DNA from: a virus
Virus record (IMG/VR): IMGVR_UViG_3300028299_000132
Span: 34,092 to 98,091 of that record
DNA: 64,000 bases
Reading direction: 5' to 3' (one strand)
Made by a program: the position numbers and the translations under genes. This document shows, in pieces, positions 20,672 through 54,025 of this stretch; position 1 is the first letter of the stretch, and every line of letters begins with the position of its first letter. Below the pieces are notes generated by a model. It was not told where the DNA came from. It did no database searches and was given only the letters and a program-made list of their open reading frames with translations.

Positions 20672-20881
20672 ATGATAACACTTTCATCGGGATATAGACC
20701 ATTATTTAGAGACTAGATAAATACTTTTTGTTCTAATAATGATATCATAATTACATATAAAAGTAATCTTGGTAATGGTAGATATGATGATTTTTATAAT
20801 TTTTATGGTGATGTACATAATATTGACAAATTGGAAAAATATGTTAATCAACTTGAAGAGAAAAGAAAAAAACAAAAATGA
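20672..20881 (+). CDS. Hypothetical protein with in-frame TAG at 20714-20716
   Basis: MITLSSGYRPLFRD*INTFCSNND...EEKRKKQK; A-rich leader; TGA overlaps next ATG. Confidence 0.7.
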
Positions 20882-40064: not shown

Positions 40065-40563
40065 TTGGGTATCCTCGTTAAAATAACGAGGTTAACGCTT
40101 CACAGACAAGGTGCTTCTCTGTTTTAACAACAAAGTCCACAGAGCTCGCCTCCACGTTCAATGCCCGACATCCCATCGGCCAGTTTTTTTTTTGGAAATC
40201 CACCAATTCCTTTAAAGAATCGTTTATATGCGTGATCTAGGTTCAATAATGATCCCTGTAAGGATTGACTGTTTATTTCCTTTAACCAATTTAATTCTTC
40301 TTTCAAATCAACTACCTGTTTCTGTAAATCAAATCTTGATATATTAACTTTGTTTCTGTACGCGTTAATTTTTGTTTCAAGCGCGAGATTATAAATAAAT
40401 CTTGTTGACCCAAAATGCTTATTTAATAATTCTTTCTGATCATCTGTGGGATATAAACGATATTTAAAGGCTTTTAACATATATTTATATATAAAATATT
40501 CAATATGCTTTTTTATCTATAAAAAGGCTGTACCTAACCCCACCTCAAGGGGATGGGGAATTC
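40065..40563 (-). mobile_element. Internally deleted IS605-family tnpB remnant (different end sequences)
   Basis: TnpB N-terminus MLKAFKYRLYPTDDQ...GGFPK fused to a 3' GC-rich omegaRNA-like tract; hairpins cctcgtta/taacgagg and cccca..tgggg. Confidence 0.8.
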
Positions 40564-43853: not shown

Positions 43854-44069
43854 ATCGTTCTGATTATTTTTTTCTTTTATATATTAATGTAAGTATGTTC
43901 TCTTTTTCCATTTTTTTAGTATATATTAAAATTTTTATCTCTTTTTTTTATTTTTTATTTTATATTCATCCAATAATTCCTGAAAAATCCAATTCCTTTG
44001 GGTCTTCTTCATCATAGTACTTCATCATCAATCTCTTCCCATACATCTAGGTTATCACCTGGTGTCTCA

Positions 44070-44768
44070 TTAATATCCTGAATATCTTTCTTCAAAATCT
44101 ATATAATTATTCTTATCATTTTCTCTTCTTAATCTTTCCATTTCCATATCAAATCTAGTTGGTGGTAGTTTTCTTCTTCTTTCCATCTCTTTTTCAATAT
44201 CATCTAACGCTTTTCTAATTCTTTTTCTTTCTGATTCACGCTCTTTTTTTGATTTCCAGAGCCAATTTTCAAATGTTTTGAAAGACTCATCCATTTCCCA
44301 TTCAAAACCACCATCCTCATTATCTTCCTTTTCTTCTTCTTGGGGTTTTATTTTTTTATTAGCGACGTGTCCTTTTAATTTATTTGTAATTTTCCATTTT
44401 GATCCACCCCTTTTAACTTCTAAACTACCTAAATTATATTCATATAATAATTCATTTATCCCATCAATAACTTCTAACCAATCATCAAAATCTGTATGTC
44501 CTACCATACTTATCGCTTCAGCGAGTTCTGAAATTTTAATCCCCAATTCATCATAATCTCTTTTATTTAATCTATTTATAATTTTAAGACATTTTTTAAT
44601 ACTATCTCTGAAAGAATAATAATTTTTATTAGTCATATTATTCACTACTACAAAGTATTTTTTATTCACATCCTCTAAACACTCATCAAGATATCTAACC
44701 AATCTTTCTGTTGATGCGAATGAAATTCCTTCGTTTAAATTAATATCTTCAAATTTTAGCGCTTTCAT
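44070..44768 (-). CDS. Tagged hypothetical protein (C-terminus probably extends to about 43935 via indels)
   Basis: MKALKFEDINLNE; internal MDESFKTFEN; acidic sequence continues in shifted frames. Confidence 0.65.
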   Translation of the reverse strand: MKALKFEDINLNEGISFASTERLVRYLDECLEDVNKKYFVVVNNMTNKNYYSFRDSIKKCLKIINRLNKRDYDELGIKISELAEAISMVGHTDFDDWLEVIDGINELLYEYNLGSLEVKRGGSKWKITNKLKGHVANKKIKPQEEEKEDNEDGGFEWEMDESFKTFENWLWKSKKERESERKRIRKALDDIEKEMERRRKLPPTRFDMEMERLRRENDKNNYIDFEERYSGY

Positions 44769-46696: not shown

Positions 46697-47080
46697 TCAT
46701 AGTGTAAAATTTAATGAACCATGAAATGGTTCATTATAGATATAATCCTGGTCTTTTTCCAAAGTACTAGATAAAAGATACTTCTTTCTTTTCCATAGAT
46801 ACTCATAGTTGATCATTCTACAATCTAAATCTATGAAATTCAAATCATTAGAAAATCTATTAATTATAACTTCAAATCTAATATTATTTACAGTCTGGAA
46901 AAACATTAATCTCCCATCTATAAAAACTTTATGGTTTAGTTTCAGTTCTTTAGTTATCTTCCTAATAAATTTACTCATATTCATATTCTTTCTATATCTA
47001 CCATATATGGTTGATCTTATGAATAAATTATAACTATCAAATATGTGTTTTGTTGTCACCATACCATTTTTTGTAATCAT
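46697..47080 (-). CDS. Hypothetical protein
   Basis: 127-aa ORF. Confidence 0.55.
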   Translation of the reverse strand: MITKNGMVTTKHIFDSYNLFIRSTIYGRYRKNMNMSKFIRKITKELKLNHKVFIDGRLMFFQTVNNIRFEVIINRFSNDLNFIDLDCRMINYEYLWKRKKYLLSSTLEKDQDYIYNEPFHGSLNFTL

Positions 47081-47222
47081 CGCCTTTTATAAAACTTTCT
47101 ATTATTGTTCTATTCTCAAGTTCGTAGTTAAGTGGAAGTTTATGTAATCTGATATACCAATTCACAAAATCAATTACTGTATCTTCATTCCATTCAAAAC
47201 TATTAACTTTCTTTTCTTCCAT
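47037..47222 (-). CDS. Small hypothetical protein
   Basis: FEWNEDTVIDFVNWY. Confidence 0.6.
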   Translation of the reverse strand: MEEKKVNSFEWNEDTVIDFVNWYIRLHKLPLNYELENRTIIESFIKGDDYKKWYGDNKTHI

Positions 47223-47279: not shown

Positions 47280-47441
47280 TCATTTGTATTCAACAAAATC
47301 TTTTCTTTTAAATATTTTTTTATACCAGGGTAGTGCATTCCATCGGTGTACTTTTGCCTAGTGTTCAGTTAAGTCATTTAATGTTTCTCTAGCTAGTTCA
47401 GCTACTTCTTTTCGCCTTTCAATTTCGTTTATATTTTCCAT
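47280..47441 (-). CDS. Small protein with in-frame TAG at 47358-47360
   Basis: MENINEIERRKEVAELARETLNDLTEH*AKVHRWNALPWYKKIFKRKDFVEYK; fills the operon gap. Confidence 0.7.
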
Positions 47442-47446
47442 ATTTT

Positions 47447-48514
47447 TTAAATTTTAATGTATTTAAATTCGTGTTGGTATTCAATTTTCTTTAAAACTTC
47501 AAAGATTAAATCTTCAGTTTTTTTAATATCTTCAATATCAACAGTTTCCACTGTTGTGTGCATATATTTCAAAGGAAGTGATATCAAACAAGATGGAACT
47601 CCACCTACGGAGTACGCGAAAGAATCAGTGTCGGTTCCTGTTGAACGACTACAAACTTTTCTTTGAAAATCAATCTTTTGTTTTGTTGCGACTCCCTCAA
47701 CCAATTCAAGGAGTTTTTGTTGAATCGGTGCACCATATGTTAAAACTGGTCCTTTACCGCAACGAATATCACCATTTTTCATTTTTTCCATCATTGGTGT
47801 TGTTGTATCGTGTGTTACATCAAGAATTAACGCTGCGTTTGGACGAATTGTTTCCACAATCATTCTAGAACCTCTAAGTCCAACTTCTTCTTGTACCGCG
47901 TTAACAACATATAAACCAAATGGTAATTTCACTCCTTCTTCTCTTAGTCGTTTAACAACCTGTGTTAGAATATAACCACCCATTTTGTTGTCTAATGCAC
48001 GACCAGTATAGAATTTATTATTCATTTTTGTTAATTCATCTGGATATGTGACTAAACACCCAACATAAATTCCTGATGATTCAACATCCTTTTTTGATGT
48101 AAATCCACAGTCAATAAAGATATTATCCGCGGATGCGTGAGTTTCTTTGGTACCAGTACCTCTTGTATGAATCGCTGGCCAGCCAAAGAATCCAGGTATT
48201 AGTCCATTTTTAGTATGGATATTAACTCTTTTAGATGGTGCTATTTGATGATCTGCTCCACCATTTTTTTTCACATAGATATATCCTTTATCTGTTATAT
48301 AACTAACAATAAATGATATTTCATCAACATGTGCTTCAATTACTACTTTAAAATCAGAATCTGGATTAATTATACCAACTGCGGTTCCATAATGGTCGGT
48401 TATAAATTTATCAACATAATCCTTCATATAATTTACCCAAATTTGTTGGGATTCATTTTCATATCCACTTGGGGATAGACTGTTTAGATAAAGTTCTAAA
48501 AATTTTTTACTCAT
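47447..48514 (-). CDS. M42-family aminopeptidase
   Basis: SPSGYE, EAHVDEI, RALDNKMG, VQEEVGLRG, LDVTH, GTDTD, YMHTTVE. Confidence 0.92.
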   Translation of the reverse strand: MSKKFLELYLNSLSPSGYENESQQIWVNYMKDYVDKFITDHYGTAVGIINPDSDFKVVIEAHVDEISFIVSYITDKGYIYVKKNGGADHQIAPSKRVNIHTKNGLIPGFFGWPAIHTRGTGTKETHASADNIFIDCGFTSKKDVESSGIYVGCLVTYPDELTKMNNKFYTGRALDNKMGGYILTQVVKRLREEGVKLPFGLYVVNAVQEEVGLRGSRMIVETIRPNAALILDVTHDTTTPMMEKMKNGDIRCGKGPVLTYGAPIQQKLLELVEGVATKQKIDFQRKVCSRSTGTDTDSFAYSVGGVPSCLISLPLKYMHTTVETVDIEDIKKTEDLIFEVLKKIEYQHEFKYIKI

Positions 48515-48707
48515 AATTACTGTTTATATTAAATAATGTGTTAAAAAAATGCATCATCATAATCATTCCAGATATAATAACCAAGAATAATTGCCATCCA
48601 ACTGGTTCAATACCATATAATGAATAAACCATTGATAGATAAAGACAATATCCAGACCCTAAAAACACCAAGAGATTAAGAAAGAATTGTGAAAATTTCG
48701 CTCTCAT
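48507..48707 (-). CDS. Small membrane protein
   Basis: Two TM segments. Confidence 0.6.
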   Translation of the reverse strand: MRAKFSQFFLNLLVFLGSGYCLYLSMVYSLYGIEPVGWQLFLVIISGMIMMMHFFNTLFNINSNYE

Positions 48708-48925
48708 TGGTCTCTAGATTTTAAAATTTTTAATATTATTCCCATTCCTGTACCACAAGATAACATCATTATTACAGCGAAAGTTTTGATATTGAATTTG
48801 TAGATAGTTAATTCTGGTTGATATGGGATTATATCCAAAAAAGATAAACATGCAAGAAAATAAAATAGGAACAAAAAACCATATCCAATTAAAAATTCAG
48901 AATTAATATCTTTTATGTATCTCAT
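48704..48925 (-). CDS. Small membrane protein
   Basis: Start at MRYIKD, downstream of the tRNA; two TM segments. Confidence 0.6.
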   Translation of the reverse strand: MRYIKDINSEFLIGYGFLFLFYFLACLSFLDIIPYQPELTIYKFNIKTFAVIMMLSCGTGMGIILKILKSRDQ

Positions 48926-48942
48926 TATTATTTGATTATCAG

Positions 48943-49017
48943 TGAGTTGAGTGGGATTTGAACCCACGACAAAGTGTTTTAGGGGCACTTGTTCTAACCA
49001 GACTGAACTATCAACTC
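48943..49017 (-). tRNA. tRNA with CUA anticodon (amber suppressor)
   Basis: GAGTTGA/TCAACTC acceptor, GTTC/GAAC D stem with GG, AGTGC-CCCTAAA-ACACT anticodon arm, GTGGG-TTCAAAT-CCCAC T arm, A73, no encoded CCA. Confidence 0.9.
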
Positions 49018-49028
49018 ATTATTTTATT

Positions 49029-49036
49029 CAAAGATA
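49029..49036 (-). promoter_or_regulatory. Bacteroidota -7 promoter element for the tRNA
   Basis: TATCTTTG ending 11 nt upstream of tRNA G1. Confidence 0.65.
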
Positions 49037-49072: not shown

Positions 49073-49102
49073 ATAACAGGGGTATTTTTATACCCCTGTT
49101 AT
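49073..49102 (-). terminator. Intrinsic terminator upstream of the tRNA promoter
   Basis: ataacaggggta-tttt-tacccctgttat hairpin followed by T-run on the minus strand. Confidence 0.8.
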
Positions 49103-49754: not shown

Positions 49755-51130
49755 AAAAATGTCAAAAGAAAACCACGATGTCTTTAGCATCGTGGATGAA
49801 TTTTGACGAACATCATTCAAATTATTTTTGGAAAAATATGACTTTTTCATTTTAATATATATTTATAATAAAGAAAACGAAAAAAGTTGTATAAAATGAA
49901 AAAGAGTTATTCTATAAGACTATTTCCGATTAAAGAACAGATAAGTCAATTAAATGAATTATCTGAAATAAGGAAAGATATATGGAATAAACTCATTGAT
50001 GTTCAACAAAAAGAATATGAAACAAACAAAACTATATTAAACAAATTCGATTTGAATAATTTACTTCCAGAATTAAAAGAACAATATATAAATTGGAAAA
50101 AATTAAATTCAAAAGCCGTTCAAACTATTGCCACAGAAATATACGGTTCATATCGTTCATTTTTCAATTTAATTAAAAAAGATAAAACGGCAAGACCACC
50201 AAGAAAGATAGATTCTGACTATTATCATACTATCGTTTGGAATCAGTCTGGTTGGATTATTCAGAGTAATATAATAACAATTAATAAGATTCCATTTGAA
50301 TATAAATCAAAAATAGATATATCAACATTAGATATAAAAGAAATCAAAATTAAATTTGTAAGAAATAAATGGTTATGTGATTTGATTGTTGAAGAACCAA
50401 TACAATATGAAGATAATCTAAAAATTAAGACTAAAGTTTTAGCAATCGATTTGGGTTTAGAAAAATTAGCAGTAGGTGTTGATAACAAAGGTAAAATGAT
50501 TGTATTGAAGAATAAATCAAAGAAAATAAATGATTATTATCAAAAAGAAATAGCAAAAATACAAAACAAAAGAAGTAAAACCAATAAAGGTTCAAAAAGA
50601 AATTTAAAATTAAAGAAAGTATTAAATAAATGTTACCATAAAAAGAACGAACAGATAAAACAAACTCTACATATTCAGAGTAAATATTTAGTGAATATGA
50701 ACTACAACACAATTGTAGTCGGTGATTTAAGTGTTAAAAATTTAATGAATAGTGAAGGTGTTAATAAAAACAAAAAAGGTATTAGAAAATCTTTTCACAA
50801 ATCTAATATTAATATGTTTTTACAATTTCTTGGTTATAAATGTCAGTTAAAAAACACAAACCTAACCAAGATAAATGAAAATTGGACTACTCAATTAAAT
50901 TGTTTAACTGGAAAGGTATTCAAAGAAAAAATTGAACTTAAAGATAGACAAGTTCAATTATCAGATACAATCACTATTGATCGTGACTTAAATTCAGCCA
51001 TAAACATTCTTAAACGATGGTTTGATAGTCATATTGCTTCTATGAACGAGCCACTTAATATTTTAAGTGTTCTTGATAGATACAACATCTATAAGGAAAC
51101 TACGACATCTTTAGTGTCGTAGTAGTTCAT
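49755..51130 (+). mobile_element. IS200/IS605-family tnpB-only element
   Basis: Inserted 3' of TTTAT; left-end hairpin ccacgatg-tctttag-catcgtgg; right end actacgacatctttagtgtcgtagtagttcat; no target duplication. Confidence 0.9.
49896..51122 (+). CDS. tnpB: TnpB-family protein with atypical RuvC-II and degenerate Zn finger
   Basis: AIDLG, IVVGDL (no Glu), INENWTTQ, DRDLNSAINI. Confidence 0.85.
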   Translation: MKKSYSIRLFPIKEQISQLNELSEIRKDIWNKLIDVQQKEYETNKTILNKFDLNNLLPELKEQYINWKKLNSKAVQTIATEIYGSYRSFFNLIKKDKTARPPRKIDSDYYHTIVWNQSGWIIQSNIITINKIPFEYKSKIDISTLDIKEIKIKFVRNKWLCDLIVEEPIQYEDNLKIKTKVLAIDLGLEKLAVGVDNKGKMIVLKNKSKKINDYYQKEIAKIQNKRSKTNKGSKRNLKLKKVLNKCYHKKNEQIKQTLHIQSKYLVNMNYNTIVVGDLSVKNLMNSEGVNKNKKGIRKSFHKSNINMFLQFLGYKCQLKNTNLTKINENWTTQLNCLTGKVFKEKIELKDRQVQLSDTITIDRDLNSAINILKRWFDSHIASMNEPLNILSVLDRYNIYKETTTSLVS

Positions 51131-51992: not shown

Positions 51993-52331
51993 TTATTTCT
52001 CCTTTTCTGTATAATTAAAATATTTTTCATTTCCTTTATATTCTTCTTTAACCGCTCTTCCATAGATAGTTCTAGTCCATCCATTTTGGTATCCGTGATT
52101 GTTAGCGATTAAATATCCTCGTTTGTCACTTTTTTGTGTGATTAAATGGCAATCAATATATCTCCCTCTCACCTTACAGAAGACCATATCTCCTATATCA
52201 TAAGAATCTTGTTTAACGAATGTCATTAATCCACCATTGTTTAGGGTTGGTTTCATTGAGTTACCAAAACATTTCATTTTTCCTTTTTTATTTTCGTCTA
52301 ATTCATTAATTAGTCTTTCGTACTTATTCAT
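51993..52331 (-). CDS. S24/S26 peptidase-like protein
   Basis: GNSMKPTLNNG, IGDMVFCKVRGRYIDCHLI, IYGR. Confidence 0.65.
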   Translation of the reverse strand: MNKYERLINELDENKKGKMKCFGNSMKPTLNNGGLMTFVKQDSYDIGDMVFCKVRGRYIDCHLITQKSDKRGYLIANNHGYQNGWTRTIYGRAVKEEYKGNEKYFNYTEKEK

Positions 52332-52660
52332 TTTGTTAAGTTTAAATTTTTAGTTAATTCTTTACTTTTTTCTCCTGGTTCTATTGTAACAGAAGTATAT
52401 TGGTTTATATCTGGTTCATAAAAAATAGACATACGAATATCATTTTCAATTAGTTTTTTTACAAACATAATGAATTCGTCATAATCCTTTACAGATAAAT
52501 AAATTAAATATTTTGATTTTTCATTCCAATGGTTGGCTATTTCAGGGTGTTCATATTGGAATTGGATAGCGGAATGTGCAGATTGCACCGCTTGATAAGT
52601 TGTTGATTTTAAATCACTTCTAGTGATTACTCTTAATTTGTTGTCTCTAATCTAGGTCAT
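52328..52660 (-). CDS. Peptidyl-tRNA hydrolase (PTH2-like) with TAG at codon 3
   Basis: ATG ACC TAG ATT AGA...KLRVITRSDL...YQAVQSAHSA...LIYLSV...FYEPDI.QYTSVTIEP. Confidence 0.75.
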
Positions 52661-52908: not shown

Positions 52909-52940
52909 CAAATATACGAACATTTTTTTAATTGTACAAA
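52909..52940 (-). promoter_or_regulatory. Bacteroidota sigmaA-type promoter
   Basis: TTTG-N20-TATATTTG. Confidence 0.75.
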
Positions 52941-53266: not shown

Positions 53267-53423
53267 AATGGAATAGATTTTAAAGTTATCACTAATACAA
53301 AGATACGAAAAATTTTTATCTTTTCAAAATATTTTGGAAATTTTATATGATTGATAATCAAATGATTATAAGTAATTTTATGTGGTTAAATTTAATAGAT
53401 TTAGACTGAATTAAAATATCACA

Positions 53424-53711
53424 TCATAGTATTTCCCCACCATTTTCCTTATTCTTTCTAATGAAATCTATACCATTACTATTGGTTATTTCGTAGTCAT
53501 CTAGATTAACTTTTTGTCCATCAATAACCCCAGTATTATCTTCAATATCTGTAACCACTTTATAACCAATCATTCTCATTCTTCTAATAGTGTTAGCTTT
53601 TAAATTATCTGGTTCTGTTTTCTCAGAATTTATTATTCTATCAGACCAATTTTTGAATATTTGTTTTTGGTCACTTTCATTTATAAACTTATTAAAATCT
53701 TTCAATTTCAT
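53424..53711 (-). CDS. Tagged hypothetical protein
   Basis: MKLKDFNKFINE. Confidence 0.7.
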   Translation of the reverse strand: MKLKDFNKFINESDQKQIFKNWSDRIINSEKTEPDNLKANTIRRMRMIGYKVVTDIEDNTGVIDGQKVNLDDYEITNSNGIDFIRKNKENGGEIL

Positions 53712-54025
53712 ATTTCTCTTGGTTTTTTAGAAATCCAATTCCCATTTTTATCTATCCTTTTCATAAAGTTATCTCGCATCTCCTTTTCTCTTTTTGATAT
53801 CTCATCTTTATATACTTTAGATAATTTCATATATTTTTCATATTCTTCTGGTGTTTTAGCTTTATTAGCCTAGTATTCGTAATCAGCTACTATTTCTCCC
53901 AAATGTCGTGTTGATACATTTTTTATATCAATTCCTTTAATATCTTCCGCTTTTATCATTTTGTGTTTTAATTTTGGAGATCTAATCTCATTTATAAAGT
54001 TTTTATAATCTTTTAAAGTTTTCAT
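53708..54025 (-). CDS. Tagged protein with in-frame TAG at 53870-53872
   Basis: MKTLKDYKNFINE...VADYEY*ANKAKTPEEYEK...KKPREI; ATGA overlaps on both sides. Confidence 0.75.

Follow-up and report, generated by a model that had tools for sequence, protein, structure and literature searches.

Introduction

Suppressor tRNAs of phages are known mainly from genomes that are fully recoded. They have been described in stop-recoded phages in which TAG is read as Gln (code 15), including crAss-like and Lak phages (bioRxiv 10.1101/2021.08.26.457843; PMC7886860; PMC9523058), and they occur both in recoded phages and in their standard-code relatives (bioRxiv 10.1101/2021.08.26.457843). Their targets in standard-code jumbo phages are a puzzle. 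In particular, the Xanthomonas jumbo phage XacN1 carries two CUA tRNAs, and targets of amber read-through were sought in this phage and none found (PMC5852040). PTH2 has been reported as a jumbo-phage gene (PMC7824862). In this work we analyzed a tRNA gene with the amber anticodon CUA located in a 64,000-nucleotide stretch of viral DNA, called the window below (bases 34092–98091 of the 98,091-bp IMG/VR record IMGVR_UViG_3300028299_000132; GC 25.8%). The same strand of the window carries a PTH2-like gene with an early in-frame TAG codon. The window locus and 80 homologous loci point to a conserved client of such tRNAs, a Pth2-like gene locked by an early stop that matches the neighboring anticodon. 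We consider it probable (about 0.58) that the tRNA is a working, perhaps attenuated, amber suppressor and that its conserved job is the opening of this early-UAG gate. A literature search revealed no description of a tRNA/PTH2 gate.

Results

Structure of the CUA tRNA gene

The two central elements of the window are:

48943–49017, minus strand: tRNA gene with anticodon CUA (49017 is G1 and 48943 is A73; ARAGORN, Rfam and fold)
52328–52660, minus strand: PTH2-like gene, beginning ATG (52660–52658) ACC TAG (52654–52652) ATT (Pfam PTH2)

ARAGORN revealed a single tRNA in the window (48942–49017, minus strand, anticodon cta), which is also the sole tRNA of the whole 98 kb, and the Rfam model RF00005 matched positions 48943–49017 of the minus strand over the full model (1–71) with a score of 61.1 bits (E 8.8e-11; gathering score 29). 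In the 5' to 3' direction the tRNA is composed of the acceptor strand GAGUUGA, UA, the D arm GUUC-AGUCUGGUUA-GAAC, a single A, the anticodon arm AGUGC-CCCUAAA-ACACU, the variable loop UUGUC (5 nt), the T arm GUGGG-UUCAAAU-CCCAC, the acceptor strand UCAACUC and the discriminator A73; the 3' flank is CUGA, so CCA is not encoded. The acceptor stem contains G1-C72 and A2-U71, and the 10-nt D loop contains G18 G19. All bases of the tertiary fold are canonical (U8, A14, G15/C48, G18 G19, G53-C61, U54 U55 C56, A58). The amber anticodon 5'-CUA-3' occupies positions 34–36 and is followed by A37, the complete loop being C32 C33 C34 U35 A36 A37 A38. Two positions of the anticodon arm depart from the usual arrangement, in which U33 lies in a 7-nt loop closed by a Watson–Crick 31–39 pair: position 33 is C, and C31 stands opposite A39. 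The latter is the one non-standard pair flagged by Infernal, and RNAfold folds the tRNA as a cloverleaf with an anticodon loop of 9 nt.

The tRNA is of the elongator type, since it has U11-A24 and its anticodon stem lacks three consecutive G-C pairs. An earlier note, made from the sequence alone, had described a full cloverleaf with anticodon CUA, C33 in place of U33, a C31-A39 mismatch, G1-C72 with A73 in place of the classic bacterial tRNA-Gln identity, and no encoded CCA, and had called the gene an amber suppressor. All these descriptions hold: the bases are read directly from the sequence, and the gene is called by ARAGORN and matched over its full length by Rfam. As judged from its predicted structure, the gene is a genuine, structurally intact, elongator-type tRNA of the amber-suppressor class.

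Three other identities were rejected. A tRNA-Pyl, the label that ARAGORN prints for any cta anticodon, has a 6-bp anticodon stem, a 3-nt variable loop, a small D loop without G18 G19 and a single base between the acceptor and D stems. The tRNA studied here is not a tRNA-Pyl, because its anticodon stem has five positions with a mismatch, its variable loop has 5 nt, its D loop has 10 nt with GG, and U8 A9 are present. An initiator tRNA that would use UAG as a start codon is ruled out by G1-C72, U11-A24 and the lack of a three-G-C run, and also by the in-frame ATG found upstream at 74 of the 75 TAG-gated loci considered below. Finally, the alternative register, with U35 taken as U33 and AAA as the anticodon, results in no paired stem.

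An early in-frame TAG in the PTH2-like gene

The PTH2-like gene matches Pfam PTH2 (PF01981) with 27.4 bits (cut-off 23), the match covering residues 8–108 and profile positions 2–114 of 115. The first canonical start past the TAG lies 22 codons downstream, inside the conserved domain. Therefore, the gene needs an upstream start, as the domain begins already at residue 8. The coding score after the TAG is 0.33 bits per codon over 107 codons, and the ORF retains all 22 family-invariant residues. When a ten-member profile of the phage proteins was compared with PDB, archaeal and human Pth2 were matched over their full length (chains 2zv3, 1rzw, 1wn2 and 1q7s, E 3e-9 to 2e-4; best match 2zv3, E 3e-9). 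The gene is the second one of a putative operon:

52909–52940, minus strand: promoter-like site TTTG-N20-TATATTTG, heading the operon of a 76-aa ORF (52895–52665) and the gated PTH2-like gene

The tRNA lies on the same strand as the PTH2-like gene, 3.3 kb downstream of it, and a TnpB gene and several small ORFs are located between them. The tRNA is also downstream of the gate in relatives such as L102, L105, L122 and L127.

Conservation of the gate in homologous loci

A profile scan of viral contigs revealed 80 PTH2-like loci (L059–L071 and L102–L168) with identity levels of 34–54% and a GC content of 21–43%. TAG is the first in-frame stop upstream of the domain in 75 of them, and in 74 of these 75 it is preceded by ATG and 0–7 codons; in the first scan the early TAG was present in 13 of 13 homologues. 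For example, the homologue from a related 119-kb phage (35% identity) begins with ATG ACT TAG ATT, after which 78 codons follow without a canonical start. Bases and codons after the TAG were counted in 62 non-redundant gated genes. The next base is a purine in all 62 (A in 46, G in 16), and the next codon is ATT (42), GTA (13), GTT (3) or ATA (1), i.e., a codon for Ile or Val in 59 genes; ACG and AGA were also found. Neither GTA nor GTT, present in 16 of the genes, is a start codon.

A CUA tRNA on the same strand and not farther than 4 kb was detected in 67 of the 75 TAG-gated loci, and four of the eight negative loci have cut flanks. The 67 loci include 51 found by ARAGORN as cta, 15 added by a looser test of the stem, T loop and acceptor, and one with the 8-nt anticodon loop AUUCUAAC. 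CUA is the commonest anticodon among the 234 tRNAs of the PTH2-like loci (54 tRNAs), and 53 of the 54 ARAGORN cta calls are on the strand of the gene. The CUA tRNAs of the 15 added loci have enlarged D loops. Suppressor tRNAs are thus under-counted by standard tools, because ARAGORN and Rfam overlook CUA tRNAs with an irregular D region.

It was also revealed that the stop codon of the gate and the anticodon change together. Locus L151 contains the gate ATG ACT TAA ATT and a tRNA with anticodon UUA 0.8 kb upstream. In L145 (3858–4060) the frame of the leader ATG differs by one base from that of the PTH2 ORF, UGAA being the exact point of junction; directly upstream lies a tRNA with the 8-nt anticodon loop CUUUCAAU, in which UUCA is the complement of UGAA, and with an acceptor stem resembling that of the L065 CUA tRNA. 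At the ungated loci L157 and L132 the start is an ordinary one and a suppressor tRNA is absent. Among cultured phages, Tenacibaculum phage pT24 has a TATATTTG element followed by ATG AAA TAG ATA, together with a same-strand CUA tRNA (191520–191593) 2.6 kb upstream of the gated gene, and in Mycobacterium phage Myrna TAG stands directly before gp84, with a CUA tRNA just downstream.

Several further features of these loci should be mentioned. Next in frequency to CUA around the gate come the anticodons CAU (46 of 234) and GCA (23 of 234), which is an enrichment of Met/Ile2-type and Cys tRNAs. CUA tRNA-like genes with an irregular D region were located at L061:2956–3035, L062:1620–1700, L063:3855–3935, L065:3515–3591, L066:2915–2996 and L067:484–563; they have clear acceptor, anticodon and T arms and gave no Rfam match at E values up to 0.05. 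The 8-nt anticodon loop AUUCUAAC (ARAGORN 'tcta') was found at L025:1501–1576 (G001:97313–97387) and L059:3520–3605, and G001, a 288-kb relative, has one tRNA with this loop and no detectable PTH2-like gene. The arrangement of L145 may reflect a four-base codon read in nature or, alternatively, initiation at the TTG that adjoins the mini-ORF. In L135 (3870–4060) the leader ATG is likewise one base out of frame and the leader ends with ATC TAA C; a matching tRNA was looked for near this gate and was not found. Two 'tRNA-Undet' genes of pT24 (L171:396–474 and 763–841, i.e., pT24 192032–192110 and 192399–192477) have a normal body and an anticodon arm with a stem of about 8 bp and the loop UAUAUUA, with A at position 33. 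Locus L060, AT-rich like the window (28% GC), contains a tmRNA gene at 1185–1532 (RF00023, 71.6 bits), 2.3 kb upstream of its CUA tRNA and gated PTH2-like gene, and this neighborhood of tmRNA and gate suggests a translation-rescue cluster.

Positions 33 and 31/39 of the anticodon arm

We compared 46 unique suppressor tRNAs of this family, i.e., the tRNA of the window and 45 relatives. All 46 have A37, and A38 and C32 are present in 44 and 40 of them, respectively. Positions 31/39 are U-A in 28 tRNAs, C/A in seven, A/C in four and C/C in one. As non-Watson–Crick combinations recur in 12 of the 46 tRNAs, and are found in non-canonical family members as well, C31/A39 is a family trait and not a defect. 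Position 33 is U in 45 of the 45 relatives and C only in the tRNA of the window.

The tRNA of L060 has a T arm, A73-CU tail and TAG junction similar to those of the window tRNA, as well as U31-A39 and U33; the PTH2-like proteins of the two loci are 47–48% identical. Two U-to-C changes in an L060-like arm would yield the anticodon arm of the window tRNA. No near-identical tRNA that could serve as an independent check of C33 was found in viral, metagenome, genome and named-phage collections, using exact and degenerate patterns for viral contigs, two patterns for metagenome contigs and blastn/megablast for named phages. C33 is natural in tRNA-Leu(GAG) of S. cerevisiae, whose U33 version changes decoding only slightly (PMC13492127), and many eukaryotic initiator tRNAs carry C33 (PMC5041475). 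C33 is a private change of the window's phage that probably lowers decoding and does not abolish it. The earlier note had expected a weak or context-dependent suppressor. Weakness was not borne out, since 31/39 is a family trait and C33 is tolerated in yeast tRNA-Leu(GAG), and dependence on context gained indirect support from the purine after the TAG in 62 of 62 genes.

Probable charging of the tRNA

The identity of E. coli tRNA-Gln is defined by a weak 1-72 pair, G73, G2-C71, G3-C70 and U35. The tRNA of the window lacks U1-A72 and G73 and contains U35. Its pattern of acceptor stem and A73 was revealed in 27 cellular tRNAs, 15 of which are tRNA-Lys(UUU/CUU) from several phyla and 12 Bacteroidota tRNA-Val(GAC). 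The best global match is a tRNA-Lys(UUU), a likeness that serves only as a lead because the compared set had been pre-selected by the acceptor stem. With C34 and U35 present, charging by the lysyl- or glutaminyl-tRNA synthetase (LysRS or GlnRS) appears likeliest by analogy with the specificities of E. coli amber suppressors, and GlnRS could possibly act through C34 and U35. The acceptor stems are very diverse across the suppressor family, which fits a gate codon placed in a non-conserved leader, where any residue suffices. Neither editing of C33 nor a synthetase encoded by the phage itself, as envisaged earlier, gained any support; the 98 kb, about 12% of the genome, contain no match to PF00749 or PF00152 (Gln/Glu- and Lys/Asp/Asn-type synthetases), nor to PF00472 (RF-1).

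Genetic code and other TAG-containing ORFs

The completeness of the contig is 12% according to CheckV; it is a fragment of a giant phage, about 88% of whose genome is unseen. The fraction of the contig covered by ORFs of 100 aa or longer is 0.88 with table 11 and 0.90 with TAG as a sense codon, TGA as sense gives the same gain, and the longest ORFs are unchanged. Whole-genome recoding of TAG (code 15) is therefore ruled out, as neither the ORF coverage nor the longest ORFs improve beyond this, and the contig uses the standard code. Among 148 predicted ORFs, 102 end with TAA, 38 with TGA and eight with TAG.

Candidate clients of the suppressor other than the PTH2-like gene were picked by a codon-usage score trained on long ORFs:

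47280–47441, minus strand: 53-codon ORF with one in-frame TAG (47360–47358, CAC TAG GCA), 6 nt after the stop of the M42 peptidase gene
20672–20881, plus strand: 69-codon ORF with TAG at codon 15 (20714–20716, GAC TAG ATA)
53708–54025, minus strand: 105-codon ORF with TAG at codon 52 (53872–53870, TAC TAG GCT), open for 53 codons past the TAG

In all three gap-filling ORFs the TAG is followed by a purine and there is no nearby restart. The first of them, at 47441, had been named as the TAG gene of the tRNA's own run; its coding score is 0.66 before the TAG and 0.28 after it, it has no restart codon and no Pfam match, and with this modest coding potential and no homologues it gives way as a client to the PTH2-like gene. 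The ORF at 20672–20881 has a coding score of 0.48 over the 54 codons past the TAG, the next start being 39 codons further on; no convincing homologue was found in five relatives, only a weak match of 28%. No homologue of the ORF at 53708–54025 was found in eight related phage records or in a set of 5.8 billion proteins. TGA yields one or two comparable chance candidates. A further ORF with an in-frame TAG (48507–48851), a close downstream neighbor of the tRNA, was rejected, its coding score before the TAG being negative and an ATG lying 3 codons past it. Two short frames with a leader, TAG and A (43966–44070, minus strand, ACC TAG ATG; 53268–53354, plus strand, ATG GAA TAG ATT) are small and lie in or beside promoter regions, and are probably due to chance.

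Candidate promoter, terminator-like hairpin and neighboring genes

48507–48707, minus strand: 66-aa membrane ORF downstream of the tRNA
47447–48514, minus strand: M42 peptidase gene downstream of the tRNA (Pfam, 243 bits)
49029–49036, minus strand: TATCTTTG, candidate Bacteroidota-type -7 promoter element, 12 nt before G1, without a -33 TTTG
49073–49102, minus strand: intrinsic-terminator-like hairpin of 13 bp with a GGGG/CCCC core and a T run (promoter/terminator scan)
49773–49795: end-like hairpin near TnpB
49887–51122, plus strand: TnpB gene (IS200/IS605 OrfB; Pfam OrfB_IS605, Cas12f1-like_TNB and HTH_OrfB_IS605)

Promoters of the Bacteroidota sigma-A form consist of TTTG at -33 and TAnnTTTG at -7, with TTTG about 19–21 nt upstream of the -7 element. 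The tRNA has the -7 half only, and the stretch upstream of TATCTTTG is composed purely of A and T. The octamer occurs seven times in 98 kb versus 6.2 expected, i.e., at chance level. Its placement is not due to chance, as five of the seven copies are intergenic, though intergenic regions make up 7.4% of the genome; four copies are located 8–80 nt ahead of a start on the same strand. Several copies are partnered by TTTG 17–21 nt upstream (46695–46664, 52940–52909, 53328–53298 and 29888–29857), and the pattern TTTG-N17-21-TAnnTTTG was found at six other sites, the site of the tRNA not being among them.

The hairpin at 49073–49102 would close the upstream minus-strand unit just ahead of the tRNA promoter; seven terminator-like sites were found in the region versus 1.1 expected. 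Between the tRNA and the M42 gene no terminator was predicted in the scan, which listed a single weak hairpin within the M42 gene (47606–47591). The earlier note had assigned to the tRNA a promoter element of its own, insulation by an upstream terminator and the head position in a run with the M42 peptidase and the ORF at 47441. The strand, the mostly intergenic octamer copies and the hairpin agree with this arrangement, the promoter being reduced to its -7 half, and it is the promoter motif only from which an early timing of the tRNA might be read. Synteny based on the M42 gene gave three jumbo-phage relatives, in none of which a CUA tRNA lies beside M42; the relatives derived in this way are jumbo phages of 119–289 kb.

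The TnpB gene, flanked by the PTH2 operon and the tRNA and encoded on the other strand, ends with TAG TAG and is not accompanied by TnpA. The TnpB element has probably separated the tRNA and the PTH2-like gene. A second TnpB is represented by a truncated N-terminal fragment at 40124–40480 (minus strand). Besides the TAnnTTTG class, a distinct candidate phage-specific promoter was noticed, TAATATATA, with 34 copies in 98 kb, 23 of them intergenic and 27 within 8–80 nt upstream of a same-strand start. In the relative L105 (26% GC), the segment 4924–5124 right after the CUA tRNA has 64% identity to the window ORF 47037–47222. The match covers the C-terminal 36 residues of this 61-aa ORF and lacks a start codon, and looks like a remnant of a shared gene order downstream of the tRNA.

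Discussion

Based on these data, the following scheme can be proposed, in which the tRNA and the PTH2-like gene would be the two halves of one device. The host polymerase would transcribe the tRNA from the Bacteroidota-type -7 promoter, RNase P and a 3' nuclease would trim the transcript, a host enzyme would add CCA and a host synthetase would charge it, the acceptor stem, A73 and U35 pointing to Lys or Gln. Which residue is inserted would not matter for the client, as its UAG is located in a leader that is not conserved. Ribosomes on the PTH2-like mRNA would initiate at AUG, decode ACC and then encounter UAG as the third codon, with a purine next. In the absence of the tRNA, release factor 1 (RF1) would release a dipeptide; in its presence, translation would continue via Ile into the hydrolase domain. 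From these two outcomes it would follow that synthesis of the enzyme requires the suppressor to be present and charged, and we consider it probable that the PTH2-like protein is produced only if the stop is overridden by the tRNA. This reading is supported by the scarcity of TAG stops (8 of 148 ORFs, compared to 38 for TGA).

Several observations speak against this scheme. C33 is found in 0 of 45 related suppressor tRNAs, so that the copy of the window may be impaired. The tRNA is located 3.3 kb downstream of the gate, with TnpB between them, whereas in most relatives it lies tens to hundreds of bases upstream, and another CUA tRNA may serve the gate since the contig makes up about 12% of the genome. 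In the phage PTH2-like family a conserved Y-Q stands in place of the archaeal lysine segment GKGK, and therefore the hydrolase activity of the family is putative; its invariant E-P-D and a Thr align with the region of the Asp/Thr site of archaeal Pth2. Codons ATT (42 of 62 genes) and ATA are able to act as weak starts, and in Myrna GTG follows the TAG, so restart after a mini-ORF is possible in some lineages. Finally, the three other TAG-containing ORFs are devoid of comparative support.

The tRNA could be a crippled or decaying copy, largely disabled by the change of U33 to C and perhaps by C31, with the gate served by another CUA tRNA from the unseen 88% of the genome or the PTH2-like gene newly silenced. 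We regard this as unlikely, although C33 is unique among the 46 family tRNAs and among the loosely detected ones, two CUA tRNAs lie near the gate in the relatives L104, L115 and L116, the contig is only 12% complete, and the tRNA has been displaced from its gate by the TnpB element. The other structural and tertiary positions are intact (61 bits), the promoter element and the insulating terminator are kept, the PTH2-like ORF retains its 22 invariant residues, and C33 has little effect in yeast tRNA-Leu(GAG). It is quite unlikely that the tRNA is a general suppressor which reads UAG widely, in sparse phage genes or at host stops, in transition to a changed code or for manipulation of the host, with the PTH2-like gate as one client or a sensor of this state. 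The three gap-filling ORFs, each with a single in-frame TAG followed by a purine, and the depletion of TAG stops would agree with such a role, as would the model in which low-GC phages lose TAG/TGA stops, gain suppressor tRNAs and recode late genes (bioRxiv 10.1101/2021.08.26.457843). However, TAG as sense lengthens almost no long ORF, the gain from 0.88 to 0.90 being no more than with TGA, the extra TAG ORFs have no homologues and TGA gives one or two similar chance candidates, while the PTH2-like gene is the one client with comparative support.

Alternatively, ATG-NNN-TAG could be a two-codon upstream ORF followed by restart at ATT, ATA or GTG, and the tRNA could be unrelated to it, being present, for example, as a member of a tRNA cluster or as an anticodon-nuclease decoy. 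ATT after the TAG in 42 of 62 genes is a possible weak start, in Myrna the annotated gp84 starts at the GTG that follows TAG, and in L145 TTG stands directly after UGAA. We nevertheless find this highly improbable: the codon next to the TAG is GTA or GTT in 16 of 62 genes, with ACG and AGA found as well, so it is the Ile/Val residue and not a start-like codon that is conserved; TAA is accompanied by UUA and UGA(A) by UUCA; and CUA is the most frequent anticodon of these loci, encoded on the strand of the gene in 53 of 54 ARAGORN calls.

A further extension of the suppressor-gate reading, which we consider doubtful, would make the CUA tRNA together with the early-UAG PTH2-like gene a translational sensor, complete in itself and spread over giant phages. 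The output of enzyme would track the balance of UAG read-through and termination, and the enzyme would in turn affect stalled ribosomes or the pool of tRNAs; the gate codon and anticodon would co-evolve, possibly up to a four-base UGAA and an 8-nt-loop tRNA in L145; and the private C33, together with the family trait C31/A39, would be a selected lowering of gain in the window's phage.

If the suppressor-gate reading is true, the locus is a minimal natural stop-codon switch on an enzyme of translation quality control, and gated genes are mis-started or missed when annotated under table 11. It would also bear on how code change begins in phages, and would provide natural orthogonal-looking pairs of tRNA and leader for engineering. 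The C33 variant is a natural test of the weight of U33 in bacterial amber suppression.

Comparison with known systems reveals both common and distinct features. Like the phages with code 15, the window combines a standard-code host, a CUA tRNA, low GC content, few TAG stops and an in-frame TAG that would tie a gene to the tRNA. In contrast to them, its genome is not recoded and the long ORFs are intact under table 11; there is one conserved client with a single UAG at codon 2–9 in place of many TAGs in late and lysis genes; and the tRNA's body appears Lys/Val-like (G1-C72, A73) and is not Gln-like. Similarly to the window's phage, XacN1 is a standard-code jumbo phage with CUA suppressor tRNAs and a peptidyl-tRNA hydrolase. 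It was rejected as a published example of the gate, as its PTH2-like domain is part of a longer ORF, in which the 40 codons preceding the domain are free of stops. The yeast tRNA-Leu(GAG) and the eukaryotic initiators share with the tRNA of the window a C in place of the near-universal U33 in an otherwise normal tRNA. Unlike these tRNAs, which serve sense codons or initiation, the tRNA described here is an amber suppressor of a bacterial virus, and its C33 is private among at least 45 relatives.

Minigenes of the lambda bar type, which consist of a start, one sense codon and a stop, are toxic and provoke a drop-off of peptidyl-tRNA that is cleared by Pth. The same layout of start, sense codon and stop is found in the window ahead of a Pth-like gene; the bar minigenes stand alone, whereas the mini-ORF of the window shares the reading frame of the enzyme and has a suppressor tRNA to match its stop. 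As in prfB, the gene for release factor 2 (RF2), an early in-frame stop is located in a translation-factor-like gene whose synthesis would report the decoding of that very stop. However, prfB relies on a +1 frameshift at UGA when RF2 is scarce, while the gate of the PTH2-like gene is presumably read by a tRNA encoded in its neighborhood.

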